Notes: generated by a model from the letters alone, not told the origin. Counted from the first letter of the stretch, positions 8,741 to 56,079 are shown. The stretch is 64,000 nt of DNA from Candidatus Omnitrophota bacterium (GCA_020057115.1 JAGVGJ010000003.1:13379-77378), one strand, 5' to 3'. Numbers and translations are program-made.

Positions 8741-8810
8741 TAGGGTCTAGGGGCCTGGGTCCGGGGTCCAGTAAAATTTTTCTGGACCCTTGACCCTGGA
8801 CCCTTGCCCC
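8741..8810. repeat. GGGTCCA/GGGNCAA heptamer-based inverted repeat element (family copy 1)
   Basis: gggtccggggtccag-taaaattttt-ctggacccttgaccctggaccc. Confidence 0.7.
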
Positions 8811-8817
8811 TTTTGTA

Positions 8818-11625
8818 TTATTTCTTCTTCGCTTCTATAACTGCCTGCGCAGCCGCGAGGCGCGCTATAGGCACGCGGAACGGCGAGCAGCTTACGTAAT
8901 TCATGCCGACCTTATGGCAGAACTTGACGCTCTCCGGCTCTCCGCCATGCTCTCCGCAGATGCCGACCTTCAGGTCCTTCCTGGTCTTGCGACCGCGTTC
9001 TATGCCGATCTTTATCAGCTCGCCTATGCCGTCTTGATCGATAGTTTGGAATGGATCCGCCGGGAGTATTTTGTTATTGATATAATCCGGCAGGAAACTT
9101 CCGATATCATCGCGGCTGAACCCGAAGCCCATTTGCGTCAGGTCATTGGTACCGAACGAGAAGAACTCCGCAGTCTCGGCCATCTTACCGGCCTGGAGCG
9201 CGGCACGCGGTATCTCGATCATTGTGCCGTACATGAAAGGCATGCTCTTAAGCCCGAACTTCGTGCATACCTCTTTATATACTTTATCTACTATCACCTT
9301 CTGGTTGTCGAGCTCTGCCTTCGCGACCGTGACCGGGATCATGATCTCGGCGATCGCCTTCTTGCCTGCCTTATTCAGCTCGGCGGCGGCTTCTAGGATC
9401 GCTCGAACCTGCATCTCGGTTATCTCAGGATAAGTTATCCCGAGCCTTACTCCGCGGTGGCCTAGCATCGGATTATTCTCCTTCAATGCCTCGGCGCGCT
9501 TGTGCAGCTCGCTCATGTCGACTCCGAGGTCTTTTGCAAGCGCCTGGAGTTTCTCCTCGCTGTGCGGGACGAACTCGTGGAGCGGCGGATCAAGGAGCCT
9601 GATAGTGACAGGATATCCCTTCATCGCTTCGAGAGTAGCCTTGACATCGCTCTTCACATACGGGAAGAGCTCGCTCAGCGCCTCTTTTCTCTCTGCGAGG
9701 GTCTTTGACATGATCATCTTCCTGAGGAGGAACAGCGGCTTGTCGCTGCCCTCGCCGTAGAACATGTGCTCTGTCCTGAAGAGACCGATACCCTCGGCGC
9801 CGAACGCGATAGCCTGCGCGGCGTCCTTTGGAGTATCCGCATTGGTGCGGACCTTGAGCGTCCTATACTTATCGACGAGCTTCATCAGCTCTTTATATGA
9901 TTTATTATTCTCGATATCGCAATCGACGAGCGGCATCTTGCCTGTATACACAAAGCCGCTGGTGCCGTTCAAGCTGATCCAGTCGCCTTCTTTTACAACA
10001 GCGCCGGACTTGGTCTTGAAGGATTTATCATCATCGGCTATGTCGAGCTCCGAACAGCCGACTATACAGCACTTGCCCCAGCCGCGGGCTACGAGAGCCG
10101 CGTGGGAGGTCATGCCTCCCTTGGCAGTCAGGATCGCCTGCGCCTTGTGCATGCCGTCGACATCTTCGGGAGAGGTCTCTTCACGCACGAGGATCACCTT
10201 CTCGCCGCGCGAAGCCCATGCCACAGCGTCGTTGGACGTAAATACCGCGCGTCCGATGGCGCCGCCCGGGCCGGCCGGCAGGCCTTTTGCTATGGCCTTA
10301 GTGGAACCCTCGGCCTTAGGATCGAGCATCGGGAGAAGAAGCTCGACCAGCTGGTTAGGAGCGACTCTCTTTATTGCTGTCTCTGCATCGATGAACTTGT
10401 CCTTATACATGTCCATTGCCATCCTGACTGCGGCTGTGCCGTTACGCTTTCCAACGCGACACTGGAGCATGAATAGCTTGTCATTCTCGATCGTGAACTC
10501 AATATCCTGCATATCCTTATAGTGGTTCTCAAGCCTTGTCTTTATATCATCGAGCTCCTTATAGAGCTTCGGCATGAGCTTCTCAAGTGAAGTCATGGAC
10601 TTTGACTGGTCGTTCTTCGAGCAGTCGTTTATCGGAGCAGGCGTGCGGATACCTGCGACGACGTCTTCACCCTGCGCATTCACGAGATACTCGCCGTAGA
10701 ACTTGTTTTCGCCGTTACCGGGGTTGCGGCTGAATGCCACGCCCGTGGCGCAATCATCGCCCATGTTGCCGAATACCATCGACTGGACATTGACGGCCGT
10801 GCCCCACTCATCCGGTATGCGCTCTATCCTACGGTACTCTATGGCGCGCTTGCCGTTCCATGATGAGAATACGGCGCCGATACCGCCCCAGAGCTGCTCT
10901 TCGGCGGTTTCCGGGAACGGCTTTCCGAGGACGTCCTTGACCGTCTTTTTGAACTCGGCTACGAGGGCCTTCAGGTCCTCGGCAGTGAGATCTGTGTCTG
11001 ACTTATAACCTTTTGAGTGTTTCACCTTCTCGAGCTTCTCGTCTAGGACTTTGCGGATACCCTTGCCGCCCTTAGGTTCAACACCGGCCGCCTTTTCCAT
11101 GACGACGTCGGAATACATCATTATGAGCCTGCGGTATGCATCGTACGCAAAGCGCTCGTTGCCGCCGGTCTGCTTTATGAGGCCAGCGATCGTCTTATCC
11201 GTAAGGCCGACATTCAGAACGGTCTCCATCATGCCGGGCATCGAGCTACGCGCGCCTGAACGGACGGATACGAGAAGCGGGTTGTTGACATCGCCGAACT
11301 TTTTACCCATGATCTTCTCTACGCCCGCCATCGCCGTTTCAACCTGGCCCTGGAGCTCTTTAGGATACTTCTTGCCGTTATCGTAATAATATGTGCAGAC
11401 CTCGGTCGTGACCGTGAAGCCCGGAGGTACCGGAAGCCTCAGTTTGGGGTGACCGGCCATGGCCGCGAGGTTCGCGCCCTTGCCGCCCAACAGGTTCTTC
11501 ATCGTCTCATCCCCGTCGGCCTTCCCGCCGCCGAAGAAATAAACATACTTGGTGCCCTTCGATACCGTTTTCCCGCCTGTCTTCCCGCTCATCGTTGCTT
11601 GAACTCCTTCCATTTTTACTGCCAC
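8818..11625 (-). CDS. ppdK: pyruvate, phosphate dikinase
   Basis: Full-length PPDK motifs (GGMTSHAA(L/V)VARG, TNDLTQ, GICGEHGG); start may be the internal MSGKTGG. Confidence 0.95.
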   Translation of the reverse strand: MAVKMEGVQATMSGKTGGKTVSKGTKYVYFFGGGKADGDETMKNLLGGKGANLAAMAGHPKLRLPVPPGFTVTTEVCTYYYDNGKKYPKELQGQVETAMAGVEKIMGKKFGDVNNPLLVSVRSGARSSMPGMMETVLNVGLTDKTIAGLIKQTGGNERFAYDAYRRLIMMYSDVVMEKAAGVEPKGGKGIRKVLDEKLEKVKHSKGYKSDTDLTAEDLKALVAEFKKTVKDVLGKPFPETAEEQLWGGIGAVFSSWNGKRAIEYRRIERIPDEWGTAVNVQSMVFGNMGDDCATGVAFSRNPGNGENKFYGEYLVNAQGEDVVAGIRTPAPINDCSKNDQSKSMTSLEKLMPKLYKELDDIKTRLENHYKDMQDIEFTIENDKLFMLQCRVGKRNGTAAVRMAMDMYKDKFIDAETAIKRVAPNQLVELLLPMLDPKAEGSTKAIAKGLPAGPGGAIGRAVFTSNDAVAWASRGEKVILVREETSPEDVDGMHKAQAILTAKGGMTSHAALVARGWGKCCIVGCSELDIADDDKSFKTKSGAVVKEGDWISLNGTSGFVYTGKMPLVDCDIENNKSYKELMKLVDKYRTLKVRTNADTPKDAAQAIAFGAEGIGLFRTEHMFYGEGSDKPLFLLRKMIMSKTLAERKEALSELFPYVKSDVKATLEAMKGYPVTIRLLDPPLHEFVPHSEEKLQALAKDLGVDMSELHKRAEALKENNPMLGHRGVRLGITYPEITEMQVRAILEAAAELNKAGKKAIAEIMIPVTVAKAELDNQKVIVDKVYKEVCTKFGLKSMPFMYGTMIEIPRAALQAGKMAETAEFFSFGTNDLTQMGFGFSRDDIGSFLPDYINNKILPADPFQTIDQDGIGELIKIGIERGRKTRKDLKVGICGEHGGEPESVKFCHKVGMNYVSCSPFRVPIARLAAAQAVIEAKKK

Positions 11626-11655
11626 TCCTTTCGATTGACACTCGAAAACCGATTT

Positions 11656-11692
11656 AGGGTCCAGGGGCCAGGGTCCTGGGTCCTTGACCCTG
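11656..11692. repeat. heptamer repeat family copy (partial)
   Basis: agggtccaggggccagggtcctgggtccttgaccctg. Confidence 0.6.
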
Positions 11693-13636: not shown

Positions 13637-14701
13637 TCAGTGCAAAATTGACCTGATGTTCGGGGTGAATTTTGTCTTGGCTTCGCAGCCGCCTGTCTCA
13701 GAATAACAAAAAGACGGGTAACCGGTAAGCGCCGACTTTCTCAGCTCGATATAACGTTTTGAATTCCATATCTTGCCGATAGGCTCATTCATGATATTGC
13801 CCATGCCCGAATCGCATTTATAATTTGCCAGATAACAGCAAGGGACCACATCGCCATCTGAACGTATCATCATATGTTTCCATGGGCGCGGGCATCTCCA
13901 CGCTGAACCGGGAAGAGCGGACTTCGACACTTCCTCCTTGGTTTTGCGATATCCGTACATCGTACATACGATCCCTTTATATTTTGCATAAGCAACCGCC
14001 ATCTCCATAGCCGGAGTAGCCAGATCATCGGACACCTCAAGCTCAGGACAATTGTGCACACGCTGGAAAGCGAGTGAACCAAATTCATGCTCAACGGCGA
14101 AGTCCACCATTCCGTTCAACCTGTCGATATTCAGCTTATTAACGAGGCAGTGGCATTCTTTGGATAAAGCGCTCTTCAGTCCGATCCGCTTGTCATTCAA
14201 CGCCCTAAGACTGCTCACCAATCGCTTCCAGGACCCGCCCCTCCTTATCCGCTCATAAATATCGGGGTCGCTGCTGTCTATAGAAAATATCAGGTTGACG
14301 TTCGGAGACTTGCATAAGAGCGCTGCTATCTTATCGTCGTCAAGCAATAATCCATTGGTCGTTATTTGAACCTTGAGATCTTTGAACCTTGCGCACTTTT
14401 CAATGAATGGACCGATATCGGCATTCAGCAATGTCTCTCCCCAGCCATTGAGCTCTATCAATTCCAAATAGCCAAGCCACCCGCTCTTGACTATTTTATC
14501 GAATAGGCCGGGAACAGCGCGCCTTCCCCATTCAATATTCTCTTTTTCGCTGCGGCACATCACGCAGTGGAGGTTGCATAAAGTGCCCGGCTCGATCTGC
14601 AGCCATGTCGGCACGCTCTTTAACGCCAGTTTGCCTTCAATAAATTCTGAATGATTAAGCCTTTTATTCCTAAGGAACATGCGTCTTTCCAGGCCGAACA
14701 T
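13637..14701 (-). CDS. radical SAM protein with C-terminal SPASM domain (peptide/protein-modifying maturase family)
   Basis: CNLHCVMC (Cx3Cx2C), GWGETLL, and C-terminal Cys-rich SPASM segment (CPRPW...CCYLANYKCDSG...C). Confidence 0.8.
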   Translation of the reverse strand: MFGLERRMFLRNKRLNHSEFIEGKLALKSVPTWLQIEPGTLCNLHCVMCRSEKENIEWGRRAVPGLFDKIVKSGWLGYLELIELNGWGETLLNADIGPFIEKCARFKDLKVQITTNGLLLDDDKIAALLCKSPNVNLIFSIDSSDPDIYERIRRGGSWKRLVSSLRALNDKRIGLKSALSKECHCLVNKLNIDRLNGMVDFAVEHEFGSLAFQRVHNCPELEVSDDLATPAMEMAVAYAKYKGIVCTMYGYRKTKEEVSKSALPGSAWRCPRPWKHMMIRSDGDVVPCCYLANYKCDSGMGNIMNEPIGKIWNSKRYIELRKSALTGYPSFCYSETGGCEAKTKFTPNIRSILH

Positions 14702-14705
14702 AATA

Positions 14706-15512
14706 TCACTGCCTCTCCAGATCCTTCATGAATTCCACCGTCCTGAGACGGCGCTCTATGTGATAATCGAGAAACCTGCGCAGGACCTGTTCGAGCTCCC
14801 TGCCCACGTCCTGCGAGACCTTGACGCGGTCGATCTTGTCGAACGGCGAGTTCTGGATATACTCGATGAACTTTACCGTACCGGGTAACATCGGCCGCGC
14901 CGATTTATCCGCCCCAAGGCAGGTCTTGCACAATAGACCGCCGTTGCGAAGGCTAAAACGCGCCGCACCGTCTAGCGCCCCGCCGCAGCTGGCGCACTCG
15001 GTCATGGCCGGCATGAGCCCTATCAGGCTTAAAAGCTTTATTTCGAATATCCTGGCGACGCGCTTCGCGCTCGCGTCGGTACATAATAATTTGAGGCTGT
15101 TCACCGTAAGATCATATGCCTCTGGGTTCGCGTCGCCGAGCGTCGTCACGGAGTCGAGGAGCTCTATCATGTAAGTGGCGTGGGCTAGCCTGTCAAGGGA
15201 TTCTCTGGCTGGGCTGAAGAACTCGGCAAGGTCGCACTGCGACACCGTGAAGATATCGCCCTTCTTCCTGTCGTAGAATACTATATCGTCGCGGCTGAAT
15301 ATCTCAAGCGCCGCGCCGCCCTGTGAGCCGCGCGAGCCGCGTACGCCCCTCAAGATGCCTTTTATCTTGCCGAAATCCCTGGTGTAGAAAGTGACTATGA
15401 GGCTCGTCTCTCTGAGTTCCTGCTTCCTTAAAATGAGAGCCTCTGATTTTTGGATGGTCAATTTCAGCCTATTTTGATTAACGAAGTAATTGGAATATGA
15501 GGGTCGTGACAA
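14706..15512 (-). CDS. recO: DNA repair protein RecO
   Basis: OB-fold N-terminus and CASCGG...CKTC zinc motif. Confidence 0.85.
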   Translation of the reverse strand: MSRPSYSNYFVNQNRLKLTIQKSEALILRKQELRETSLIVTFYTRDFGKIKGILRGVRGSRGSQGGAALEIFSRDDIVFYDRKKGDIFTVSQCDLAEFFSPARESLDRLAHATYMIELLDSVTTLGDANPEAYDLTVNSLKLLCTDASAKRVARIFEIKLLSLIGLMPAMTECASCGGALDGAARFSLRNGGLLCKTCLGADKSARPMLPGTVKFIEYIQNSPFDKIDRVKVSQDVGRELEQVLRRFLDYHIERRLRTVEFMKDLERQ

Positions 15513-16176
15513 GAATTCCCAGGAGGGCGCCTACAATGACCTCCCATATGGTATGGATAGAGTCCTTTATCCTATGCCTGGCTATGAGAAACGCGAGCAG
15601 GAATACGAGCATGACGACACCGAAATTATTTGTCATGAATGTTATTATCGTCCATACCGAGAATGCGACGGCCGCGTGCCCTGAAGGCATCCCGCCGCGA
15701 AGCGGCGTGCCCCTGTGAAAGAAAGCCTTGCCAACGATAGTGAACGCAAGCACCAGTATCAGCGATATGAATGTCATATGCCACGAGGATTGCCGCAGGC
15801 GCGCTATGCCGTCTTCCATGTTGAACGGCACCCTCTTCGAGAAGAGGACATATCCGACTATGACTGCATTTATCGCGGTAAGGAGGACCGCTCCCGCCGC
15901 GACATCCTTGACTATGCGCGCTATAGGATGGAACTCGCTCTTCACCATATCCACCACGAGCTCAAGGGCCGTATTTACCATCTCGGACAAAAGGACGATC
16001 GCTATGGTCACGAAGAGTATCATGAGCTCCGTAGCTGAAAGGTTCAGGTATATCCCCAGGAGTATTATGAACAGGCCTATGAAGAAATGGACGCGCATGT
16101 TGCGCTCCGTCTTCATCATGTAGATGAACCCCTCTACCGCCGCATTAAGACTTTCGATAAATCTATTTTCGTGCAT
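15478..16176 (-). CDS. fusion of prokaryotic diacylglycerol kinase (DgkA) and PAP2 phosphatase domains
   Basis: DgkA signature ESLNAAVEGF at N-terminus; PAP2 motifs PSGH and SR..HRIKDSIHT at C-terminus. Confidence 0.6.
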   Translation of the reverse strand: MHENRFIESLNAAVEGFIYMMKTERNMRVHFFIGLFIILLGIYLNLSATELMILFVTIAIVLLSEMVNTALELVVDMVKSEFHPIARIVKDVAAGAVLLTAINAVIVGYVLFSKRVPFNMEDGIARLRQSSWHMTFISLILVLAFTIVGKAFFHRGTPLRGGMPSGHAAVAFSVWTIITFMTNNFGVVMLVFLLAFLIARHRIKDSIHTIWEVIVGALLGILVTTLIFQLLR

Positions 16177-16610
16177 AATCTCTCCAGTACCTTCTCCTGT
16201 TTTCTCGACATCCTCGCGCGGGCATCTTTCGTATAGTCCTCGTATCCGAATAGATGAAGGATGCCGTGTATCACGTAAAGCGCTATCTCTTCTTCCAGGC
16301 GCGTGCCATATATGGCGCAGTTCTTAACGGCCGTATCGGTTGAGATGAATATCTCCCCAAAAAACCCGTCCTCGCCAAACTCGCCGGATGCGATATTGAA
16401 ACTTAAGACATCGGTGGCGCGGTCTTTGCCCCTGTATTTCCTGTTGAGCGGCCTGATGGCTTTATCGCTTAAAAATACCACCTCGAGCGAGCCCATGCCG
16501 CGCCTCTTTATTATGCCGAGGACTTCAAGGACCAGGCGCCTTATAAATCTTTCGTCCAGCCTGAAGGTCTTGTTGCGGTTATCTATCCGTATCTTTGGGA
16601 GCGCTGTCAT
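16134..16610 (-). CDS. ybeY: rRNA maturation RNase YbeY
   Basis: HGILHLFGYEDY metal-binding motif. Confidence 0.85.
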   Translation of the reverse strand: MTALPKIRIDNRNKTFRLDERFIRRLVLEVLGIIKRRGMGSLEVVFLSDKAIRPLNRKYRGKDRATDVLSFNIASGEFGEDGFFGEIFISTDTAVKNCAIYGTRLEEEIALYVIHGILHLFGYEDYTKDARARMSRKQEKVLERLCTKIDLSKVLMRR

Positions 16611-17554
16611 TTCTTCAGTTTGTCGTAGGCCTTTATTATCTCCTGGACGAGCTCATGCCTTACGACATCCTCGCCCTTAAGATAGGTGAACTTTATCCCT
16701 TCGATATTGCCGAGCAAGTCGCGCACGTGAGAAAGGCCCGAAACCTTATGGCTCGGAAGGTCCGACTGGGTTATGTCGCCTGTTATAACGGTCTTGGAAT
16801 CGAATCCGAGGCGCGTCAGGAACATCTTCATCTGCTCGGGCGTAGAATTCTGCGCTTCATCCATTATTATGAATGAATCATTGAGCGTCCTGCCCCTCAT
16901 GTAGGCGAGGGGCACTATCTCTATCACGCCCCTCTCGACGCAATCCTTGATCTTGTCGATCTCCATCATGTCATAGAGCGCGTCATAGAGCGGCCTGACA
17001 TAAGGAGTCACTTTTTCATTGAGATCTCCCGGAAGATACCCGAGGCTCTCTCCGGCCTCCACCGCCGGCCTAGTCAATATGATCCTCGACACAAGTTGTT
17101 TCTTTAAAGCATTGACCGCCATTGCTACGGCCAGATATGTCTTTCCCGTGCCGGCCGGACCTATGCAGAAGACGATGTCATTATGCCTTATGGAATCTAC
17201 GTATTCCTTCTGGCCTGCCGATTTTGGCGTGATATACTGCCGCTTTGAGGATACCTCGATCCGGTCTAAATATATGCTGTGTATGTCGCGCGTCTGGTCC
17301 TTCTTTATCGCCTGGATGGCATAAATGATCTCATGCTTCTTAAGGATCCCGCCGTTACGGAGGGTGATGACGAGTTCTTCGACGAGCCTTGAGGCAAGTT
17401 CGACCCCTTTCGGCTCGCCCTGTATCTTGAGCGCGTCTCCCCTCGTCGCAAGAGTAATGCCGAATTCCGCCTCGATGATCTTAAGGTTCTCATCGTGCGT
17501 GCCGAACAGCGCGCGCGCTTCCGCGGTATCTTTTATTTTGAAGAGCTTTTCCAT
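16607..17554 (-). CDS. phoH: PhoH-family ATPase (YbeZ-like)
   Basis: Walker A GPAGTGKT, Walker B IIMDEAQ. Confidence 0.85.
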   Translation of the reverse strand: MEKLFKIKDTAEARALFGTHDENLKIIEAEFGITLATRGDALKIQGEPKGVELASRLVEELVITLRNGGILKKHEIIYAIQAIKKDQTRDIHSIYLDRIEVSSKRQYITPKSAGQKEYVDSIRHNDIVFCIGPAGTGKTYLAVAMAVNALKKQLVSRIILTRPAVEAGESLGYLPGDLNEKVTPYVRPLYDALYDMMEIDKIKDCVERGVIEIVPLAYMRGRTLNDSFIIMDEAQNSTPEQMKMFLTRLGFDSKTVITGDITQSDLPSHKVSGLSHVRDLLGNIEGIKFTYLKGEDVVRHELVQEIIKAYDKLKK

Positions 17555-20891: not shown

Positions 20892-20985
20892 AGCTCCTGG
20901 CTGAGGGTCCAGGGGCCAGGGTCCGGGGTCCAGTAAAAAAATTTAGTTTTATTCTGGACCCTTGACCCTGGGCCCTTGCCCCTCA
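20892..20985. repeat. heptamer inverted repeat element (family copy)
   Basis: gggtccaggggccagggtccggggtccag-[AT loop]-ctggacccttgaccctgggcccttgcccc. Confidence 0.7.
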
Positions 20986-24940: not shown

Positions 24941-25012
24941 AGGGGCCAGGGACAAGGGTCCAGGGTCCAGTAGAAGAAAATTTTATTTTTCTGGACCCTT
25001 GACCCTATCTTC
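24941..25012. repeat. heptamer inverted repeat element (family copy)
   Basis: aggggccagggacaagggtccagggtccag-[AT loop]-ctggacccttgaccc. Confidence 0.7.
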
Positions 25013-27527: not shown

Positions 27528-27613
27528 CTCGCGTTTTACGTTACGCTTATAAACGGCAACTGGCTGCCATCGTCCTCTCGGACTTTAGGCCCTATAGCTT
27601 TGCGTCCACACCC
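27528..27613 (-). ncRNA. conserved PEP-CTERM leader motif, copy 1 (candidate cis-regulatory RNA)
   Basis: Shares ...CAGGGCCUAA-[hairpin]-AUGGCAGCCAGUUGCCGU-...ACGU.AAA.CGAG with copy 2; hairpin GUCC-GAGA-GGAC here versus UCUCC-GUA-GGAGA in copy 2 (compensatory). Confidence 0.5.
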
Positions 27614-27843
27614 TTTCGAGTGGTTTGCGATTTATACACCGTCAAAAAGAACATACTTCTTCGTTCTAATTATAGAATACACTATATTGTATGTTAAGTC
27701 AATAGAAGCTTTGCTGCCTATTTTCTCGCCACCCTCAGATGATCTATTTTAACACCTTATAGTCAAGCAAAAACAGAGCATGCATATCACGCCCAATATT
27801 ATCATTTCTGTTATGAATATTTCCTTTCCGTTTCTCGTAATTA

Positions 27844-32277: not shown

Positions 32278-32304
32278 TTTTTTCCTGGACCCTAAAACAA
32301 AGAT

Positions 32305-32380: not shown

Positions 32381-32468
32381 TCTCATCTCGCTTTCACGTA
32401 AGCAAATACGGCAACTGGCTGCCATTGTCTCCTACGGAGAGTTAGGCCCTGTAGTTTTGCCACGCCAT
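32381..32468 (-). ncRNA. conserved PEP-CTERM leader motif, copy 2
   Basis: See copy 1; identical 18-nt core AUGGCAGCCAGUUGCCGU; near-identical promoters (TTAACA-17-TATAAT versus TTAACA-17-TAGATT) upstream of both. Confidence 0.5.
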
Positions 32469-32659
32469 ATTATTTGATTGGCGCGATCCCGCGCTATTCG
32501 TAGGGATGTCGCCGGGTTTCCCCGGGTTTGCTATTATCCGAAACACCTAAAGAACAATGCCAAGCTCGATCACAAATCTAGTATATCTTATAATCTATGT
32601 TAAAGCAATAGAAACCTAGCTTCCTATTTCCGTGTTAACGGGTGATTGGAAAAAGATAA

Positions 32660-32698: not shown

Positions 32699-32737
32699 TG
32701 CTTTCTTACAGCTTAAAGCTTATAGCTTAAAGCTTTT

Positions 32738-36583: not shown

Positions 36584-38597
36584 TTTTGCCTGGCTCTCCT
36601 GGACCCTGGTCCCTTGCCCCTTGACCCAACCCGTATTTTTCCTTGAGCTCTTTTATCTGATCCCTGAGCACCGCGGCGCGCTCGAACTGCAGATTGCGCG
36701 CGGCCATCTCCATGTCGCGCTGGAGCTCCGATATAAGCATAGTCACATCATACTCATCCGCCGTCTCATCGGCGGCCTGGCATATCACTTCCCTGGCCTT
36801 CTTGTAGGATTCTATGCCCTCCCTTACGGCCTTCTCTATCGAGCGGGGGGTTATATTGTGCAGGACATTGAAGTCGGTCTGGATCTTGCGTCGGCGATCG
36901 CCTTCATCGATAGCTGCCTTCATCGATCGAGTCACCTTGTCAGCATACATGAGCACCCGACCGTTCAGGTGGCGCGCCGCGCGGCCTGCGACCTGGATAA
37001 GGCTCGTCTCGCTTCTCAGGAATCCCTCCTTGTCTGCATCCAGTATGATTACAAGCGATACCTCCGGAAGATCAAGCCCTTCCCTCAACAGGTTTATGCC
37101 GATCAGGCAATCGAACTTATTGAGCCTGAGGTCGCGCAGTATCTCGACGCGCTCTATGGCGTCGATCTCCGAATGTAAATATTTGACCTTGAGCCCCATC
37201 TCCTGGAGAAAGCGCGCCAGGTCCTCTGCGAGCCGTTTCGTAAGAGTGGTGACAAGCACCCGCTCTTTTCGCTCGGCCCTTTGGCGCACTTCTTTTATAA
37301 GATCGTCTATCTGATTTTTTGTCGGCCGCACCTCTATCGGCGGGTCTATAAGCCCGGTAGGCCTTATTATCTGCTCGACTATCCTTCCTCCGGACTTTCC
37401 TATCTCATAGTCAGAAGGCGTGGCAGACACAAAGACAGTCTGGGGAATAAGCGCCTCGAACTCTTCAAACTTAAGAGGCCTGTTGTCGAGAGCCGACGGA
37501 AGCCTGAAACCATATTCGACGAGCGTCTCTTTTCTTGCCCTGTCCCCGTTATACATCCCGCGCACCTGCGGTATGGAGACATGAGATTCGTCGATAAATA
37601 AGAGGTAATCCTTAGGAAAATAGTCTATAAGGCACCAGGGCCTTGAGCCGGCAGGCCTTCCTGATATATGACGCGAATAGTTCTCTATGCCGCTACAATA
37701 ACCTATCTCCCTCATCATCTCGACATCATACTTGGTCCGCTGCTCCAGCCGCTGAGCCTCGAGCAGCTTGTGGTCATGCCTGAATTCGGCGAGCCGCCCG
37801 CAGAGCTCTTCCTCTATGGACTTTACGGCTTTTTCTATCCTCTCGCCGGTAGTGACAAAATGCTTTGCGGGATATATGCCGACCTTCTTTACGCCTGTAA
37901 GTATATTACCAGTGAGCGGGTCTATCTCATATATATGTTCTATGCGGTTCCCGAATTGCTCTATCCTGTATGCAGTCTTAGTGTAAGCCGGATACACCTC
38001 TACGGTATCGCCCCTTACCCTGAATGTCGAGCGCTTGAAATCATAATCATTCCTGTCATAGTGTATCGCTATCAGCTTCTTTAGGATGGCGTCTCGAGGC
38101 ACCTCTTCGCCTTCCTCGAAAAATGCAAGCATCTCGCCGTATTCTTCCGGAGAGCCGAGACCATATATGCATGATACGCTCGCTACTATTATTACGTCAT
38201 CCCTGGACATGAGGGAGCTTGTCGCGGAGAGCCTCAGGCGGTCTATGTCCTCATTGATGGATGAGTCCTTCTCTATGTATATGTCATTATGAGGGATATA
38301 TGCTTCGGGCTGGTAATAGTCATAGTAGCTAACAAAATACTCGACCGCATTCTCCGGGAAAAATTCCTTGAATTCGCTGTATAGCTGGGCGGCGAGGGTC
38401 TTGTTGTGGGATATGATGAGCGCGGGCTTCCCGATATTAGCGATGACATTCGCCATGGTGAATGTCTTGCCTGAGCCGGTGACCCCGAGAAGCGTCTGGA
38501 ATTTATCATTCTTATTCAAGCCCGCGGTGAGTTTCGCGATAGCCTGGGGCTGGTCCCCTTCGGGCTTAAAAGAGCTTACTAGCTTGAATTTCGCCAT
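36576..38597 (-). CDS. uvrB: excinuclease ABC subunit B
   Basis: GVTGSGKT Walker A, helicase motifs, C-terminal UVR domain; tail [13 protein letters not shown] is encoded by a heptamer-repeat copy (36596-36640). Confidence 0.95.
36596..36640. repeat. heptamer repeat copy forming uvrB C-terminal tail
   Basis: tggaccctggtcccttgccccttgacc. Confidence 0.6.
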
Positions 38598-38598
38598 A

Positions 38599-39480
38599 TC
38601 AGACTATATCCAAAGTCATGTCGATATCTTCAACGGAGCTCGTGAGCGAGCCGACGGATATCATGTCGACTTTTGTTTTGGCGTATTTCTCTATGGTGCC
38701 GAGATCGATGCCTCCGGATACTTCAAGCTGAGGCTTTATCTTGGAGAGCTTCCTTATGTCCATGCATGCTTTCACGTTATCCGGCGTCATATTGTCGAGC
38801 ATGATGATGTCGGGCTTTCCCGAAAGCGCGTCGCTGAACTCCGCCAGGCTCTCCACCTCGACCTCGACGACAGTTCCTTTGATATTATTCTTCCTCGCCC
38901 TCTCGACAAGGTCTTTTAATTTAAGCTTCTCTCCGCTGTCCGAACCCCGGTGCCAGATGCCTGCCACCCTGATATGGTTATCCTTGATCAGGACCGCGTC
39001 ATAGAGCCCCATCCTGTGGTTCGTGCCTCCGCCGGTAAATACCGCGTACTTTTGAAGATAGCGCAAAAGCGGTATAGTCTTCCGGGTATCCATGATCTTG
39101 ACGCCATAAGGCTTCGCGATATCGACGAATTTTCTGGTTTTGGTCGCTATGCCGCTCAAGAATGCGACAAGGTTAAGCATAGCCCTCTCGGTCTTTAATA
39201 TGGACTGGGCGCGCCCTTCTATATAGGCGAGCTCCTTCCACGCGCCGACAAGATCCCCATCCGAACAATTGGGCTTAAAACGGACGCTGCAATCGATGGC
39301 GCCAAGCATCCACTCCGCTATCTGAAGCCCGCAGACTACGCAATCCTCCCGGGTCAGCATCACGGTGTCTATCGACGTCGACTTATCGATAAGAGCGCTC
39401 GTGGTGATGTCGCCAGAGCCTATATCCTCTTTGAGCACCGCCTTTATTATTGCCAGCGTTCTCGCCTTATCAAGCTGCAT
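38599..39480 (-). CDS. nadC: nicotinate-nucleotide pyrophosphorylase (carboxylating)
   Basis: QAPRTase N- and C-domains, 293 aa. Confidence 0.9.
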
Positions 39481-39806: not shown

Positions 39807-42533
39807 TTATTTATCCAGGTTCTTAAGGTTGTCTCTTAACTTCTGTATCTGCAGGACCAGCTCTTCTTTATAATCACTCTGTTTTTTCACGATCTCCTCG
39901 GGAGCTTTCGAGGTAAAATTCTCATCGCTAAGGCGCGAGGTTATGCTCGCTATCTCTTTGTCTATCCTGGCCTCTTCCTTTTTTATCCTCGCCTTCTCCT
40001 TTTCAAAGTCGATAAGCCCTTCGAGAGGCACGTAAACCTCTATGTCTCTCACTACGCTGACGGCCGAGCTCTTAGGTTTCGGGAATTTCCCGATCTTTAT
40101 GTCCGATACCCTGGAAAGCTTCCTGATTATGTCAGCTACGTCACTCAGGATCTTCTCGTCTTCGGGCTTATGTATGTTAAGTATGGCGTTTATCGTGGTC
40201 TTCGGGTCTATGTTCCATACTGAACGTATGTTCCTTATGGCTGTCACTATCTCTATCATATGCTGCATTTTCGCTTCCGTATCGCCGGAGATCATCTGGC
40301 TCTGAAGATGCGGCCATGGCTGGACCATGATAGAATCATCGCCGCCTGAGCGTTCGCGCGGCAGCTTCTGCCATATCTCCTCGGTCACGAAAGGCATGAA
40401 AGGATGCAGCATCCTCAAGGATTTCTCGAGTATCTTGTACAGGATGACTTGTGTTCTCTTCTCGGTTATGGAGAGCTTGACCATCTCTATATACCAGTCG
40501 CAAAACTCATGCCAGAAGAATTCGTAGATGGAATTGGCGGCCTCATTGAATTTATATTCGTCCAGGCATTTTCCGACATATCCAAGCGTCGAATAGAAAC
40601 GCGACAATATCCACCTGTCCGGGAATGAAAGATCCTCTTTTTTAAAGAACTCGCAGAGATCCACCCTTATATCTTCCGGCTTCAGGTTCATCAATATGAA
40701 GCGCGAGGCATTCCATATCTTATTGGCAAAATTCCTGCCGAGCTCAAACTTTCCTTCGGAGAGGAATACGTCCTGGCCCTGGGCTGTTATCGAGATTATG
40801 CTGAACCGCAGCGCGTCGGTACCATACTTCTTTATCATGTCGAGCGGGTCTATGACATTGCCCAGCGATTTTGACATCTTGGTGCCGGTGATATCCCTTA
40901 CCGTCCCGTGGATATAGACATCCTTGAACGGGATATCGCCCATGAACTCCATGCCAGCCATTATCATCCTGGCGACCCAGAAGAATATTATCTCCTGGGC
41001 GGTAACTAACGCATTCGTAGGATAGAAATATTTCAGCTCCTCTGTCTTGTTCGGCCATCCGAAGGTCGAGAATGGCCATAGCCATGACGAGAACCATGTA
41101 TCAAGGACATCCGGGTCCTGCTCGATATCGGTCGATCCGCACTTCGGGCACTTCTCCGGCTTTGTCTTCGCGACAATAACGCCCGTCTTCCAATCATCCT
41201 TACTGGCCCCTGGCCCCTGGCCCCTGGACCCTGCTCCAGCTACACATTGCTTACAATAGTAAACCGGTAATCTATGCCCCCACCATATTTGCCGCGATAT
41301 GCACCAGTCGCGGATATTGTACATCCAGTCAAGATAGACCTTCGTCCATCTCTCGGGATAGAACTTTATCCTTCCGTCCTCTACCGCCTTGATGGCAGGC
41401 TCGGCAAGCGGCTTCATCTTGACAAACCACTGGGGCGATAGCCTCGGCTCCACGACCGTATGGCAGCGGTAACAATGGCCGACGGCATGCCTGTGGGCCT
41501 CGCTCTTTACGAATAACCCGCGCTCTTTTAACTCTACAAGTATCGCCTCGCGCGCCTCAAAGCGGTCCATGCCCTCATAGTCTCCGCCATTGGCATTGAT
41601 CGTTGCATCATCATTCATGATATTTATCTGCTCTAGTCCATGCTTCAAGCTAAGACCGAAGTCGACCGGGTCATGGGCAGGTGTCACCTTAAGAGCGCCT
41701 GTGCCGAATTTGAGATCGACCATAGTGTCTTCGATGACCTTCAGCTCCCGCTCGAGTATCGGGAGGATGACCTTTTTGTCTTTCAGGCCCTTATATCTCT
41801 TGTCCTTCGGATTTATGGCTACGGCCACGTCTCCAAGCATAGTCTCCGGCCTCGTCGTCGCCACCACGATGAATTCTTCATCCGGCCCCTGGCCCCTGGC
41901 CCCTGGCCCCTTCACCGGATATTTTATGTAATACAGCATCCCATCCAGATCCTTATGCTGCGACTCTTCGTCGGAAAGAGCGGTCTGGCAGCGCGGGCAC
42001 CAGTTTATGATGTAATTGCCGCGGTAGATGAGCCCTTTTTCATATAATCTCACAAAAACCTCAAGCACCGAGTCGGACAACCCTTCATCCATCGTGAACC
42101 TGGTCCTCTGCCAGTCGCATGAGGCGCCAAGTTTCTTAAGCTGCCTTATGATGGTCGAGCCATACTCCTCTCGCCATTTCCAGACCTCTTCCACGAACTT
42201 CTCGCGTCCGAGGTCATGGCGTTTTTTGCCTTCCTTGGCAAGCTTACGCTCTACGACATTCTGCGTGGCTATGCCGGCATGATCTGTTCCTGGCATCCAT
42301 TCGGTCTCAAAGTCCTGCATGCGTTTGAAGCGTACGAGTATGTCCTGGATGGTATCATTGAGCGCATGGCCCATGTGGAGAATTCCGGTGATATTGGGAG
42401 GCGGTATGACTATCGAATACGGCTTTTTATTTGGATTTGAGGAGGCGTGGAAATATCCCTTCTCCTCCCACTTCTTATATGATCTATCCTCAACATCATG
42501 AGGATCATATGCTTTTGGTAATTCGTCGGCCAT
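39807..42533 (-). CDS. valS: valine--tRNA ligase
   Basis: HMGH and KMSKS motifs, editing domain, C-terminal coiled coil; contains two in-frame heptamer-repeat insertions. Confidence 0.95.
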   Translation of the reverse strand: MADELPKAYDPHDVEDRSYKKWEEKGYFHASSNPNKKPYSIVIPPPNITGILHMGHALNDTIQDILVRFKRMQDFETEWMPGTDHAGIATQNVVERKLAKEGKKRHDLGREKFVEEVWKWREEYGSTIIRQLKKLGASCDWQRTRFTMDEGLSDSVLEVFVRLYEKGLIYRGNYIINWCPRCQTALSDEESQHKDLDGMLYYIKYPVKGPGARGQGPDEEFIVVATTRPETMLGDVAVAINPKDKRYKGLKDKKVILPILERELKVIEDTMVDLKFGTGALKVTPAHDPVDFGLSLKHGLEQINIMNDDATINANGGDYEGMDRFEAREAILVELKERGLFVKSEAHRHAVGHCYRCHTVVEPRLSPQWFVKMKPLAEPAIKAVEDGRIKFYPERWTKVYLDWMYNIRDWCISRQIWWGHRLPVYYCKQCVAGAGSRGQGPGASKDDWKTGVIVAKTKPEKCPKCGSTDIEQDPDVLDTWFSSWLWPFSTFGWPNKTEELKYFYPTNALVTAQEIIFFWVARMIMAGMEFMGDIPFKDVYIHGTVRDITGTKMSKSLGNVIDPLDMIKKYGTDALRFSIISITAQGQDVFLSEGKFELGRNFANKIWNASRFILMNLKPEDIRVDLCEFFKKEDLSFPDRWILSRFYSTLGYVGKCLDEYKFNEAANSIYEFFWHEFCDWYIEMVKLSITEKRTQVILYKILEKSLRMLHPFMPFVTEEIWQKLPRERSGGDDSIMVQPWPHLQSQMISGDTEAKMQHMIEIVTAIRNIRSVWNIDPKTTINAILNIHKPEDEKILSDVADIIRKLSRVSDIKIGKFPKPKSSAVSVVRDIEVYVPLEGLIDFEKEKARIKKEEARIDKEIASITSRLSDENFTSKAPEEIVKKQSDYKEELVLQIQKLRDNLKNLDK
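41200..41245. repeat. heptamer tandem (CTGGNCC x5) inside valS encoding GAGSRGQGPGAS
   Basis: ctggcccctggcccctggcccctggaccctgctccagc. Confidence 0.7.
41881..41915. repeat. heptamer tandem (GGCCCCT x4) inside valS encoding GPGARGQGP
   Basis: ggcccctggcccctggcccctggcccct. Confidence 0.7.
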
Positions 42534-47244: not shown

Positions 47245-47280
47245 CTTCGCCTTTATCCAGGCCAGGGTCCAGGGATCAAT

Positions 47281-50393: not shown

Positions 50394-50444
50394 ATCATTT
50401 AACCCTTTTTAGCTGAAAGCTGACAGCTGATGGCTGAAAGCTTC

Positions 50445-51653
50445 TTATTTATTCTTCAAAAAATGGCCCGTCAAGGCCGCGCCCGACTTGAACTTGACCT
50501 CGCTTGCGGCGCCATTCTTCTCGGTAAATGCTTCAAAACCATTCTGGCCTATGCCCTTACCGGCCATGACGAACGGAACGGGATCTGCAACGTGGGTCCT
50601 CACCTCTACCGGGGTTGCATGGTCCGGCAGGACCATGATACGGTACTCTTTCGAATTCTTCAGATACTGCCATACCGGCCCAACGACAAATTTATCGAAG
50701 TTCTCTATGGCCCTTATCTTCTCCCTCACCTCGCCGTTATGGCCTGCCTCGTCGGGCGCCTCCACATGGACGAATACGAAATCCTTATCCTTTAAAGCAT
50801 TGACGGCATATTCTCCCTTGCCCTGGTAATTCGTATCATAGTATCCTGTCGCGCCCGGAACGCTCACCACGTCAAGCCCTACGAGCTTTCCTATCCCATT
50901 CAGCAGGTCTACGGCCGAGATGACCGCTCCGGTAAGGCCGAACATGCCCTTGAATGTCGGCATGTTGGGATCTGTGCCCTGCCCCCAGAGCCATATCATG
51001 TTGGCAGGGTTCTCGCCCAGGTCGAGCCTGACCTTGTTTATCTCGTGCTTCTCCAGTAATTGGCGCGCCTTCTGCATGATATCGATGATACTATCGGCCT
51101 GTTTGCCCTTTGGCAGGTTCTTCGATATCGACTTGCCGGTTATGTCATGGGGCGGAACGCATACAGTCTTGACATAGTCTGTCGCCTCTTCATGCGACCT
51201 GGTCTTTATGATAAGAAGGTGGCGGTAGCTCTTGCCGGGGCAGAACCTGATCCTGTCGGAGCCGAGCTTCTCGTTAAGGAAATTGATGATAGTCGTCGCT
51301 TCTTTATCGTGGATGTGGCCTGCGCTGTAATCCGCAAGCGTGTCGTTGTTTGCGGTGATGAGGTTGCATCTGAAGGCAACATCACCTTCTGTCAGCGTCA
51401 CGCCGATATTGGCTGCCTCGAGCGGCCCCCTTCCGGTGTAATAGATCTTAGGGTCATATCCCATAACCGCAAGATTGGCAACATCGCTTGCCGCCTTCAT
51501 GCCGCGAGGTATCGTCTTTACGATGCCTACGGTGCCGGCCTTCGCTATCTCATTCATATTGGGTATCTTGGCGACTTCCAAAGGCGTCTTGCCATCCAAC
51601 TCTGCCATCGGCCAGTCAGCCATCCCATCGCCTAAAAGGATCGCATATTTCAT
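50445..51653 (-). CDS. ApgM-family (cofactor-independent phosphoglycerate mutase-like) protein; proposed homoserine kinase
   Basis: [15 protein letters not shown] metalloenzyme N-terminus; sits between lysC and thrC where thrB is expected (matches the TIGR02535 proposed-homoserine-kinase context). Confidence 0.7.
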
Positions 51654-52753
51654 ATCCCTATCTCCTTCAACACGGCATCAAGTTTCGCTTCTACTACAGC
51701 GGGCTTGGATACACTTGCTATCGCCCTGTCCGGGTCCTTCAACCCATGCCCGGTGAGAATGCAGACGATCTTAATTTTCCCGGACCCCGGACCCCCTGTC
51801 CCGAGCGAAGTCGAGGGATGGACCCTGGCCCCTTTAAAATATCCTTTTTTCGCGAGTTTCAACACGCCCGCCACGCTTGCCGCGCTTGCGGGTTCGACGA
51901 AGACACCTTCTTTTGCGGCAAGAAGTTTATAAGCGGCAAGTATCTCGTCATCGGTCACCATATCTATCAGGCCGCCTGATTCATCGCGTGCAGCCTCGGC
52001 CTGCTTCCAGCTCGCGGGATTGCCTATCTTTATCGCGGTCGCGATGGTATGAGGGTCTTTTACAGGATGCCCGAGCACGATGGGCGCCGCGCCCTCAGCC
52101 TGAAAACCGAGCATCTTCGGCAGTTTCGTCGCCTTCTTCGCGGCCTTATATTCTTTGTAACCCTTCCAGTATGCGGTGATGTTGCCTGCGTTGCCCACGG
52201 GGATGGCATGAAAATCCGGCGCATCCCCGAGAGAGTCGCATATCTCAAATGCCCCGGTCTTCTGCCCTTCTATCCTGTAAGGGTTGATGGAGTTCACCAA
52301 AGTTATAGGATATTTATCTGTTATCTCCCTCACCAGGTTGAGCGCATCGTCAAAATTACCCTTTACAGCTATGACTTTTGCGTTGTGTATCATCGCTTGG
52401 GAGAGTTTGCCCAGCGCGATCGCTCCTTCTGGGATGAGGACTACGCATTTTAAACCTGCCCTTGCGGAATACGCGGCGGCGGACGCGGAGGTGTTGCCTG
52501 TGGAAGCGCACATAACGAACTTCGAACCCTCTTCGATGGCCTTAGATATGGCCATGGTCATGCCTCTGTCCTTGAAAGAACCGGTTGGATTAAGCCCCTC
52601 GTATTTAAGATAGACCTCGACGCCTTCTCCGACGAGACTCGATACGTGGCAAGCATAGACCAGCGGCGTATTGCCTTCGTTAAGCGTCACCACCGGAGTC
52701 TTGTCGGTTACCGGTAAGAACTTCCTGTATTCCTCTATTACGCCCTTCCACAT
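51650..52753 (-). CDS. thrC: threonine synthase
   Basis: PLP lysine motif GSFKDRG; C-terminal GTGGPGSG insertion derives from a heptamer-repeat copy (51781-51835). Confidence 0.9.
51781..51835. repeat. heptamer repeat copy inside thrC 3' region
   Basis: cggaccccggaccccctgtccc...ggaccctggcccc. Confidence 0.55.
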
Positions 52754-54060: not shown

Positions 54061-54098
54061 TTCTTGGACCCTAGACCCTTGTCCCTGGACCCTAAAAA
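54061..54098. repeat. heptamer repeat copy between hom and tRNA-Pro
   Basis: cttggaccctagacccttgtccctggaccc. Confidence 0.55.
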
Positions 54099-54176
54099 TG
54101 GTCGGGGCGGGCGGATTCGAACCGCCGACCCCTTGCACCCCAAGCAAGTGCGCTTAGCCAGCTGCGCTACGCCCCG
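54099..54176 (-). tRNA. tRNA-Pro (anticodon GGG)
   Basis: Acceptor CGGGGCG/CGCCCCG, anticodon stem CUUGC/GCAAG, loop UUGGGGU, T-loop UUCGAAU, encoded CCA; TTGTAT-16-TATAAT promoter about 20 nt upstream. Confidence 0.8.
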
Positions 54177-54225
54177 AAATCAAAATAATATATTGGGTGA
54201 TATTATAACAAATTTGACATAATAT

Positions 54226-54262
54226 ACAATAAAAAAAGAGGCTCTTTTCCTGATAGAAAAGG
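54226..54262 (-). terminator. strong Rho-independent terminator (12-bp stem + U7)
   Basis: GAGGUCCUUUUC-UAUCAG-GAAAAGAGCCUC-UUUUUUUAUUG. Confidence 0.6.
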
Positions 54263-54460
54263 ACCTCATCCATTTAGTCCTGACGCGGCCTGGCACGATA
54301 GCGTTTCCTAAAAGAGCTTTGCCAAGCTTTAGGTAGCACTACCGTGCCGGTATTACAATTACCCCCTTACCCATCTTTGCTGCTTCTCTCGAGCGTCTAA
54401 TTTCGAGCGTCTTATTTTATCGATTAAGAAAGTTGTTTTAATGAACTTTCGTTTTTCTCG
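54226..54460 (-). ncRNA. candidate small RNA (about 235 nt), promoter-to-terminator unit without ORF
   Basis: Minus-strand TTGACA-17-TATATT promoter at 54466-54496 and terminator at 54226-54262; interior has no ORF over 11 codons. Confidence 0.3.
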
Positions 54461-54618
54461 TCTCAATTATAATATACCTTCAAATTCGTGTTTTGTCAAG
54501 GGGCAATATCAAGCTTTTTTATTGCCTAATTCTATATGCTCTAAAGCTTCGAATTATAGTGAATGGGCAAGGAAGACGCATATGTAGATTTTTAATGGAC
54601 TAATGTTATATTGTGCTA

Positions 54619-55626: not shown

Positions 55627-55748
55627 AGTATCACTTTTATATCACACCTCTCCACCCGCGTCAAGGAATCCGTGACCATAGGCAGAATTTCCTTACTGCG
55701 AAGGCGGGCGGCCCTTCTGGGGTAGATCTGTCGCTTGACGTTCGCTCA

Positions 55749-55800
55749 CAAGATAGCAAGATAAGGCAAGATAAGGTAAGGCCAAGATAAGCAAGATAAG
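55749..55800. repeat. tandem 9-mer array (CAAGATAAG x about 5)
   Basis: caagatagcaagataaggcaagataaggtaaggccaagataagcaagataag. Confidence 0.7.
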
Positions 55801-56034
55801 GGACGTTTCTAAATCTGATCTTGGGACGTTTGTAAATTCCATCCTGCACCTGTCCCCTAACTTTTTAGTGGACTGGCGCGATTTTTAATTTTGGGACATG
55901 CGTAAGATGGATTTTAGAAATATTCCTATATCTGTTTATGCCTATATATTGTATCCCTCCTTCCCGGGGACAGGTGTGATCTTAAATTTGGGGACACATG
56001 CAGGATGGAATTTAGAAACGTCCCTAATTTTTGC
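55798..56034. repeat. cluster of four 35-bp GGGAC-N25-GTCCC palindromic units in mixed orientation
   Basis: Units at 55798-55815 (partial), 55821-55857, 55901-55936, 55989-56034; the second and fourth are near-exact inverted copies (gggacgtttgtaaattccatcctgcacctgtcccc versus rc gggacgtttctaaattccatcctgcatgtgtcccc). Confidence 0.7.
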
Positions 56035-56079
56035 CTCTGGACCCTTGACCCTGGACCCTTGACCCTCTATAATATCTGG
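56030..56079 (+). promoter_or_regulatory. heptamer repeat copy providing TTGACC-17-TATAAT promoter; dus mRNA apparently leaderless
   Basis: tggacccTTGACCctggacccttgaccctcTATAATatctggATG: -10 ends 8 nt before the ATG. Confidence 0.45.

Follow-up and report, generated by a model that had tools for sequence, protein, structure and literature searches.

The closest published counterparts of the repeats considered here are the G-rich heptamer repeats that have the unit GGGAATC in Xanthomonas and GGGGA(C/T)T in Nostoc, which most often comprise four tandem units, form 70-75 convergent inverted pairs per genome, and are intergenic in 89-93% of cases, mostly flanked by co-oriented open reading frames (ORFs), near the upstream one, the remaining 7-11% being intragenic (Rehm et al., 2015; PMC4692102). 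Positions of these repeats are conserved between species, their length and sequence vary, they form G-quadruplexes in vitro, and no function was found for them (PMC4692102). More generally, it has been known since 2007 that among the long simple repeats of bacteria heptamers are the commonest (Mrazek, 2007, as cited in PMC4679880 and PMC4692102). Here we describe repeats of the same kind, but of a different sequence family, with the unit GGGNCMA, in a 64 kb stretch of the genome of one Candidatus Omnitrophota bacterium (GCA_020057115.1, JAGVGJ010000003.1:13379-77378), hereafter the window.

The likeness to the repeats of Rehm et al. (2015) is extensive: in both cases 7-nt tandem units with a tract of at least three G residues occur in runs with a mode of four units and as convergent pairs, reside mostly in intergenic spacers, either near the end of the upstream ORF or in antisense just 5' of an ORF, and maintain their positions between relatives while varying in length and sequence. 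Beyond the unit and the Omnitrophota host, the differences are in the coding copies, which account for 4/12 of the copies in the window versus 7-11%, and which are found on the coding strand in 4/4 cases, whereas coding-strand copies are under-represented among the Xanthomonas and Nostoc repeats. Also unlike that description, composite elements appear to have been copied between sites, and G-rich families coexist with non-G-rich families in the same genome and with families of 8-nt units in relatives. Thus, while the G-rich heptamer-repeat kind is known and widespread, what is new here is that one third of the copies are coding, that different units occupy the same places in other Omnitrophota, so that the phenomenon is phylum-wide, that composites are copied, and that non-G-rich families also adhere to a length of 4-5 units.

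We interpret these sites, with a probability of about 55%, as a family of tiny, non-autonomous, structure-prone repeats that are subject to slippage and occasional copying and are kept where they are harmless. The best-supported reading of their nature is that they are selfish or near-neutral, resembling Rickettsia palindromic elements (RPEs) in behavior without being RPEs. The basic module would be a run of about four tandem GGGNCMA heptamers (28-30 nt), standing alone or as a convergent inverted pair. Slippage during replication would turn over the units in place, holding the runs near 4-5 units, occasional copy-and-paste would carry whole composite elements to new sites, and selection would retain copies only in harmless places, namely the few nucleotides that separate a stop codon from the following gene of an operon, the trailer of a tRNA, a spacer close to a promoter, and, in proteins, a small number of surface loops or termini, where the coding copies would yield loops rich in Gly, Pro, Ala, Arg, and Gln.

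Heptamer Runs and Hairpins in the Window

The window has a GC content of about 50% and a negative GC skew throughout, and nearly all of its genes are housekeeping genes on the minus strand, including those for a sigma-70 factor, PPDK, several aminoacyl-tRNA synthetases (aaRS), dnaE, groES/EL, birA, uvrB, nadC, valS, a leuA-like gene, aspartate kinase, thrC, hom, gpsA, and dus. The first-pass annotation, made from the sequence alone, proposed a dispersed GC-rich heptamer family at twelve sites, and this proposal is borne out: GGGNCMA or its complement TKGNCCC is present at 12/12 sites, at 10 of them as runs of about four units, with units such as GGGTCCA, GGGGCCA, GGGTCAA, and GGGGCAA. The list itself is uneven, two of its members being marginal, with one unit at 32283-32297 and two units at 47261-47277; the former is the weakest member and could have originated by chance. 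The three-unit pattern GGGNCMAGGGNCMAGGGNCMAGGG, with up to two mismatches, produces 18 matches in the window versus 0.00 in 100 dinucleotide-preserving shuffles, and scanning for periodicity detects 12 windows that have a period of 7 and at least three units versus 0.05 in shuffles, with zero runs in the window at periods 8-12. With Tandem Repeats Finder, arrays of period 7 are called at 8785, 11656, 20904, 20957, 24941, 36598, 41203, 41884, 54067, and 56040, each with 3.9-4.4 copies, and at 51779, in thrC, with 2.4 copies. All 17 of the GGGTCCAG octamers of the window fall within the twelve sites (Table 1). At the DNA level, the repeat is dispersed.

Table 1. Heptamer elements of the window, followed by arrays at equivalent places in other Omnitrophota loci (L numbers). 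Folds are predicted RNA folds, in kcal/mol.
Feature	Location	Strand	Units or product	Context
Full hairpin	8743..8810			Between PPDK stop (8818) and sigma-70 gene start (8725); fold -42.5 (minus), -44.4 (plus); z -6.1, -5.4
8743 element, G-arm	8743-8771		GGGTCTA GGGGCCT GGGTCCG GGGTCCA G	
8743 element, loop	8772-8781		TAAAATTTTT	
8743 element, C-arm	8782-8810		C TGGACCC TTGACCC TGGACCC TTGCCCC	
Full hairpin	20905..20982		G-arm 20905-20933, 20-nt A/T loop 20934-20953, C-arm 20954-20982	Between stop of 139-aa ORF (20990) and HU-like gene start (about 20888); fold -55.8 and -58.3; z about -7
Hairpin, truncated C-arm	24942..25005		4-unit G-arm 24942-24970, loop 24971-24990, 2-unit C-arm 24991-25005	Between IMPDH-like stop (25016) and dnaE start (24914); fold -28.8 and -35.3
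Single G-arm, four units	11657..11692	+	GGGTCCA GGGGCCA GGGTCCT GGGTCCT, then one complementary unit TTGACCCTG	Between class II aaRS stop (11710) and PPDK start; plus-strand fold -26.7
Single unit	32285..32293	-	GGGTCCAGG	Just 5' of likely start of 1489-aa ORF
Two-unit remnant	47263..47275	+	CAGGGTCCAGGGA	Spacer between methyltransferase gene and 63-aa ORF
Single G-arm	54066..54094	-	GGGTCCA GGGACAA GGGTCTA GGGTCCA	5 nt after encoded CCA end of tRNA-Pro(GGG), about 14 nt before likely hom start (54046)
Single C-arm	56037..56066	+	C TGGACCC TTGACCC TGGACCC TTGACCC	Directly 5' of dus
UvrB tail	36597..36627	-	Sense GGGTCAA GGGGCAA GGGACCA GGGTCCA	Translated as extra C-terminal tail
ValS loop 2 insertion	41201..41233	-	Sense GGGTCCA GGGGCCA GGGGCCA GGGGCCA, giving GAGSRGQGPGAS	
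ValS loop 1 insertion	41883..41911	-	Sense (GGGGCCA)x4, giving GPGARGQGP	
ThrC insertion	51779..51833	-	Heptamer units 51779-51797 and 51819-51833	Translated after PALP domain
Second-family run	32705..32735	-	AAGCTTT AAGCTAT AAGCTTT AAGCTGT (4.4 units)	Between groEL stop (32738) and canonical intrinsic terminator of groEL
Second-family run	50410..50445	-	AAGCTTT CAGCCAT CAGCTGT CAGCTTT CAGCTAA (4.6 units)	Fills spacer from phosphoglycerate-mutase-like stop to aspartate kinase start
ValS loop 1	L119		(CAGCTNT)4-AAAAAAAGAA-(AGCTGAA)4 hairpin	
ValS loop 1	L124		(GGGTCAA)4.5	
ValS loop 1	L121		(GTGTCAGC)4	
ValS loop 2	L119		GTCCACA/CGTGGAC hairpin	
ValS loop 2	L124		GTCGTTC/CGAACGA hairpin	
ValS loop 2	L121		GGGATTC x5	
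ThrC	L119		CAACGAA x5	
ThrC	L141		CCGGCAAA x4.9	
UvrB end arrays	L119, L124, L142			
Arrays just after NadC	L119, L142			

The proposed inverted pairs around an A/T-rich loop are also real. Three such elements are present, each with a G-arm of four units, a loop of 10-20 nt, and a C-arm, always in this order (3/3), the C-arm being composed of four units in the elements at 8743 and 20905 and of two units in the element at 24942. When the two complete hairpins are aligned over their whole length, the unit variants follow the same order in both, GGGTC(T/C)A GGGGCC(T/A) GGGTCCG GGGTCCA and then TGGACCC TTGACCC TGG(A/G)CCC TTGCCCC. The pairs are predicted to fold as RNA at -29 to -58 kcal/mol (z of -3.3 to -7.3) on either strand, with stems that are imperfect beyond the GGG/CCC blocks; the plus strand folds slightly better via G-U pairs. 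As either strand folds about equally well, strand-specific RNA structure is uninformative as an explanation. A main role as intrinsic terminators can be rejected, as no T-run follows the hairpins in the direction of transcription, and a consensus scan detected 22 terminator-like sites versus 18.4 expected, thus no excess; groEL, moreover, is equipped with a canonical terminator of its own, located downstream of the second-family run. The remaining sites are single arms, which are G-rich on the sense (minus) strand at uvrB, at both valS sites, in thrC, and in the tRNA-Pro trailer. When G-quadruplex energies are allowed (ViennaRNA), paired elements still favor the hairpin over the quadruplex, and for single arms the quadruplex is predicted, with a strong preference at ValS loop 1 (-42.8 versus -18.8 kcal/mol) and a weaker one at three others, the G-arm of uvrB being among the predicted sites. 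Single G-arms could form G-quadruplexes in either RNA or DNA.

In-Frame Copies in ValS, UvrB, and ThrC

Four copies had been proposed to be translated in frame, two in ValS, one as a C-terminal tail of UvrB, and one in ThrC, and all four are confirmed, as are the peptides quoted for them, including VKGPGARGQGPDEEF and VAGAGSRGQGPGASKDDWKT in ValS and those in UvrB and ThrC. ValS is encoded at 39807-42533 (minus strand), and the named proteins closest to it, 74-77% identical, all come from metagenome-assembled genomes of Candidatus Omnitrophota. The loop 1 insertion forms the tip of a beta-hairpin that precedes the ATTRPE motif in the editing domain, and the loop 2 insertion is placed between the CxxC pairs of a zinc knuckle. 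The ValRS of Thermus thermophilus (1GAX) is gapped at both, the gap at loop 1 being of 9 residues. The AlphaFold model of ValS is poor (mean pLDDT 63.5, pTM 0.45) and places both insertions in low-confidence coil, with residues 210-217 (loop 1) as coil between strands 199-208 and 221-226, and with pLDDT below 50 at residues 434-449 (loop 2). Across 116 aligned full-length ValS proteins of Omnitrophota, no large region of variable length is present other than these two loops, of which loop 1 ranges from 6 to 45 aa (mode 7) and loop 2 from 1 to 35 aa (mode 2).

For comparison with the window we used loci of other Omnitrophota, L119-L124, L141, and L142, of which L120 represents the closest relative. 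In the syntenic locus L122, both loops of ValS are minimal. The UvrB tail is missing in L119, L120, and L122, and in L124 a different heptamer is found in its place, while the ThrC segment of the window exceeds its counterparts in L119, L122, and L123 by 8-9 aa. The Gly/Pro-rich segments are thus lineage-specific, being missing from syntenic orthologues (L122, L120) and from 1GAX, and orthologues without them do exist. In thrC, the heptamer run is split at 51798-51818 (minus strand) by a unique 21-nt piece, TCCCTCGACTTCGCTCGGGAC, of which no second copy is present in the window; it looks like a nested insertion, comparable to a 48-nt piece found within the loop 1 element of the ValS of L142.

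Tolerance of a 7-nt unit inside essential genes had been called unusual. The tolerance is real, but its cause is simple, and UvrB and ThrC are housekeeping rather than strictly essential proteins. In 4/4 coding copies the G-rich strand is the sense strand, and this reading, GGG NCM AGG GNC MAG GGN CMA, is free of stops in all three frames, while TTGACCC on the sense strand would give TGA; every coding insertion, moreover, amounts overall to a multiple of 3 nt. It is because of these two properties, the stop-free G-rich orientation and the lengths divisible by three, that a 7-nt unit can be tolerated in frame.

Probable Turnover in Place and Copying of Whole Elements

At equivalent places in other Omnitrophota, as judged from the syntenic loci, period-7 or period-8 arrays are found that are built of different units (Table 1). 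One example is ValS loop 1, which is made of (GGGCCAG)4 in the window and of (GTTCCAG)2(GCACCAG)2 in L120, in the same phase. Such in-phase replacement of units argues for turnover in place by slippage. Another example is an internal segment of NadC that follows KDNH(I/L) and is of nearly constant length in 6/6 lineages. Arrays are recognized in this segment at about 38926-38970 (minus strand) in the window, where they are degenerate, and at 13422-13457 in L122, 13306-13332 in L123, 5250-5286 in L124, and 12398-12428 in L142, with units as different as TAGCGTA, GGGTGWA, ACAGTTR, and GGGNNTC. The window itself has a second, non-G-rich family, with the unit MAGCTNT on the sense strand and runs of 4.4-4.6 units, which in L119 is represented by in-frame ValS hairpins and by intergenic hairpins. 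A length of 4-5 units is also typical of other non-G-rich 7-mer families and of families with 8-nt units, so the four-unit rule must extend beyond G-quadruplex formation alone. Not all lineages are rich in such arrays: L122, whose ValS loops are empty, possesses one array in 22.6 kb.

Copying is suggested by a different set of observations. In L141, both ValS loops contain hairpins of 8-mer units that are identical at 69/72 nt, with unrelated flanks. In L142, one hairpin family is present in both ValS loops, one copy carrying the nested 48-nt insertion, and further copies are found nearby. ValS proteins that are at least 90% identical differ by the clean presence or absence of 26 aa, and the loop, 1 or 2, at which the peptide families specified by these elements are found differs between lineages. 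Near-identical composites at unrelated sites point to copy-and-paste of whole elements, for which slippage alone is insufficient.

These data bear directly on the simplest alternative, that the sites are purely local simple-sequence repeats, created by independent polymerase slippage on chance proto-repeats without any transfer, with the likeness of units reflecting mutational bias. The in-phase unit replacement between the window and L120 is what such a process would produce, similar G-rich heptamer runs occur in many phyla, and the prevalence of heptamers among the long simple repeats of many bacteria has been ascribed to slippage in the accounts of Mrazek (2007) given in PMC4679880 and PMC4692102. 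The order of variants common to two loci of the window and the L141 hairpins with their unrelated flanks are, on the other hand, beyond the reach of independent slippage. The occurrence of the same multi-part hairpin families at different loops across lineages also speaks against this alternative, which we consider improbable and already disfavored.

If whole elements are copied, mobilization by a transposase needs to be considered, either in the manner of REP/REPIN elements, via a RAYT enzyme (IS200/IS605-type Y1), or in the manner of MITEs, in trans, via an insertion sequence located elsewhere in the genome. The copies are dispersed and nearly identical, one has a nested insertion, and the combination of hairpin doublets with single-arm remnants parallels REPIN doublets and REP singlets (PMC3116915). 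At the same time, no transposase, integrase, or RAYT domains are encoded among the approximately 55 genes of the window. Neither target-site duplications nor terminal inverted repeats distinct from the arms were detected when filled and empty ValS loops were compared across seven lineages and when the two L141 copies were compared; loop residues at the filled sites are replaced rather than duplicated, although the relatives are distant and old duplications could have decayed. Arms made of tandem units, several unit families per genome, and copies within genes are, in addition, atypical of REPs. Transposase-driven mobilization appears, therefore, to be the least probable of the explanations considered here.

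Gene Context and the Question of Function

The intergenic copies nearly fill very short spacers, starting 0-17 nt past the upstream stop codon or tRNA end and ending 3-30 nt before the next start codon. Their placement at the 3' ends of genes, as originally proposed, is correct, but almost all are between co-directional minus-strand genes and none are between convergent genes, and the only copy in a divergent spacer is the one at 56030-56075. With starts located 3-7 nt past stop codons, the hairpins could plausibly have an effect like that of the REP or BIME elements of E. coli, and they probably act as barriers to 3' exonucleases or as modulators of ribosome release or operon polarity. The units TTGACCC could, in turn, furnish a -35 box. 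At 56045-56073 (plus strand), TTGACC as a -35 box is followed, after 17 nt, by the flanking TATAAT, 11/12 positions agreeing with the consensus, and this promoter-like site ends 6 nt before the likely start codon of dus (56079), which suggests a near-leaderless promoter made from the repeat. As to the tRNA-Pro(GGG) gene, its encoded CCA is followed by five T residues and then by the four-unit G-arm, so that its trailer consists of a repeat predicted to be capable of forming a quadruplex.

The main rival explanation is one of function, namely that the runs are cis-acting sites of about four units (G-quadruplexes, hairpins, or sites for a protein that binds one unit per 7 nt) recognized by a lineage-specific trans factor that exerts post-transcriptional or transcriptional control, with unit sequences co-evolving genome-wide and with the copies in ValS, NadC, and ThrC acting at the RNA or DNA level. 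This would account for orthologous positions being filled across lineages by units that are lineage-specific yet common to loci within a genome, for the presence of 4-5 units whatever their sequence or period (7 or 8 nt), and for the strict placement beside stop and start codons. A preferred orientation is consistent with it as well, the complementary run being located downstream of the G-run 11 times and upstream once among the matches listed from other phyla, as it is downstream in 3/3 pairs of the window, and so is the near-consensus promoter furnished by one run. There is also a precedent in CspB-type proteins, which, according to work cited in PMC4679880, bind heptamer repeats with one protein per unit. 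Speaking against it are the presence/absence polymorphism among ValS proteins of at least 90% identity and the many empty loops, which mark the elements as dispensable, the associated genes that share no common function, the lack of a regulatory role in the study of Rehm et al. (PMC4692102), and the lack of compensatory covariation between hairpin arms; no candidate factor was identified, either. On balance we regard functional sites, and the co-evolution of units that goes with them, as unlikely.

The reading as harmless repeats maintained by slippage and copying has weak points of its own. No mobilizing enzyme or mechanism was identified among the approximately 55 genes of the window. ValS loops 1 and 2, ThrC, the UvrB tail, and the NadC segment are filled by different units in many lineages, the NadC segment at nearly constant length, and such recurrence of protein positions can be explained by a functional or targeted process no less well than by random insertions sifted by selection. 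The 4-5-unit rule in non-G-rich families is explained neither by a slippage equilibrium nor by G-quadruplexes. Arm covariation is absent among 18 hairpin copies from the window and metagenomes (0.66 paired versus 0.64 in the control, with 230/2000 permutations being as good), the register being crude for a few of these copies. Finally, the evidence from this genome is limited to 64 kb, and the protein clusters of ValS, UvrB, ThrC, and NadC have one member each, strain-level relatives being absent from the protein collection.

More tentatively, the data might be taken to reveal a new class of mini-elements in Omnitrophota, with arms of four 7-nt or 8-nt units, that spread without a recognizable transposase, terminal repeats, or target duplication, that repeatedly rewrite the same places in core enzymes (the loops of ValS, NadC, and ThrC and the end of UvrB), and whose units change in concert within each genome; we find this possible, but doubtful. 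If true, it would imply either that simple-repeat hairpins are copied and pasted by a new route or that about four units are read by a lineage-specific factor, which drives their co-evolution. Orthologous loops with different units provide natural pairs of filled and empty sites for work on the mechanism. If the elements are selfish, then colonization of proteins in the style known from Rickettsia would extend to a free-living or episymbiotic candidate phylum. From a practical standpoint, the insertions add low-complexity loops and spurious variation in length to core proteins of Omnitrophota, and these can disturb alignments, phylogenomics, and structure prediction.

Relationship to Other Known Repeats

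The suggested resemblance to RPEs holds for behavior, as both intergenic and in-frame coding copies are present. RPEs, of which ten families are known in Rickettsia, are palindromes of unique sequence of about 100-150 bp (Ogata et al., 2000, 2002, as summarized in PMC10969869). According to that summary, they are, like the elements described here, small palindromes residing both between genes and in frame within unrelated housekeeping genes, where they specify fold-compatible peptides, and they encode no transposase. The elements of the window differ in being 28-95 nt in size, in being composed of 7-nt or 8-nt tandem units, and in being often single-armed, the coding copies in the window all being single arms. 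Membership among RPEs is therefore rejected: size, tandem-heptamer architecture, and host all differ, and no sequence relationship exists.

The REP and BIME elements and the REPINs (PMC3116915) of Enterobacteria and Pseudomonas are similar in being short, GC-rich, imperfect palindromes that follow stop codons between co-transcribed genes and come as doublets and singlets. REPs are not known to be made of tandem units and are, as far as is known, strictly extragenic; they possess a recognition tetranucleotide that is conserved, and they depend on RAYT enzymes, none of these features being found for the elements of the window. The window family appears to fall outside REPs, since four of its copies reside inside coding sequence, and outside MITEs, since filled and empty ValS loops, though compared between distant relatives, differ by no target-site duplication. 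The likely consequence at the RNA level, the protection of mRNA 3' ends for which REP elements are known, would be the same for both.

The STRR of Calothrix and Anabaena and the TAACTGA repeats are likewise dispersed tandem heptamers, of 2 to at least 6 units, mostly intergenic, located near start and stop codons, distributed patchily across phyla, and sometimes mixed with other heptamer families (PMC4679880). Their units and hosts are different, and descriptions of them as hairpin pairs or as insertions in frame into core enzymes are rare. The window family does not belong with the STRR, which are repeats of heterocystous cyanobacteria, given its different host and a unit distinct from what we take to be the STRR units. 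The second family of the window (AGCTGAN) differs by approximately one base from TAACTGA, the unit known from Beggiatoaceae, cyanobacteria, and Bacteroidetes (PMC4679880). No Rfam family covers the heptamer elements, and a literature search found no paper mentioning heptamer repeats of this kind in Omnitrophota.

Distribution and Other Observations

When one genome per species was scanned with the G-heptamer pattern, the matches listed were found to include Acidobacteriota, Geobacter, Nitrospinota, Gemmatimonadota, Planctomycetota, Chloroflexota, Calothrix, and others, many of them with the layout of G-arm, loop, and C-arm; no Omnitrophota locus is among the 80 matches listed. Several of the listed G-arrays are followed by a run of an unrelated heptamer, such as CCTCTAG, GCCTATC, AGCTTAC, or TTCTAAC. 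A metagenome scan returned 16 contigs with hairpins of the GGGNCMA family of the window, none of them from this genome. The G-heptamer pattern is also present in 66 IMG/VR contigs, some with long arrays, which may be either proviral flanks or true phage DNA.

Two of the compared loci are peculiar in other respects. In L123, the UvrB encoded at 13753-17409 is a protein of 1218 aa with an intein (Intein_splicing and LAGLIDADG domains). In L142, ValS (8627-11480) is called as two genes, one for 886 aa and one for a C-terminal coiled-coil piece of 71 aa, with a 23-nt overlap, which may represent a frameshift. The genome abounds in 7-nt and 8-nt arrays, and this ValS also holds a third array, CAGAAAT x5, at 10220-10256.

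Within the window, the 400-nt spacer between gpsA and dus contains other repeats: direct repeats of the AAGATAAGG type (55749-55801), two tandem copies of 23 nt (55800-55845), and an inverted repeat of 41 nt whose halves, 55823-55863 and 55984-56024, are 88% complementary and 120 nt apart. These may belong to a separate small element or to an RNA gene. Lastly, two proteins without Pfam domains, of 389 aa and 1489 aa, are encoded downstream of matches to the c-di-GMP-I riboswitch, at 27552-27639 (minus strand, 70.8 bits) and 32407-32476 (minus strand, 36.9 bits), respectively.

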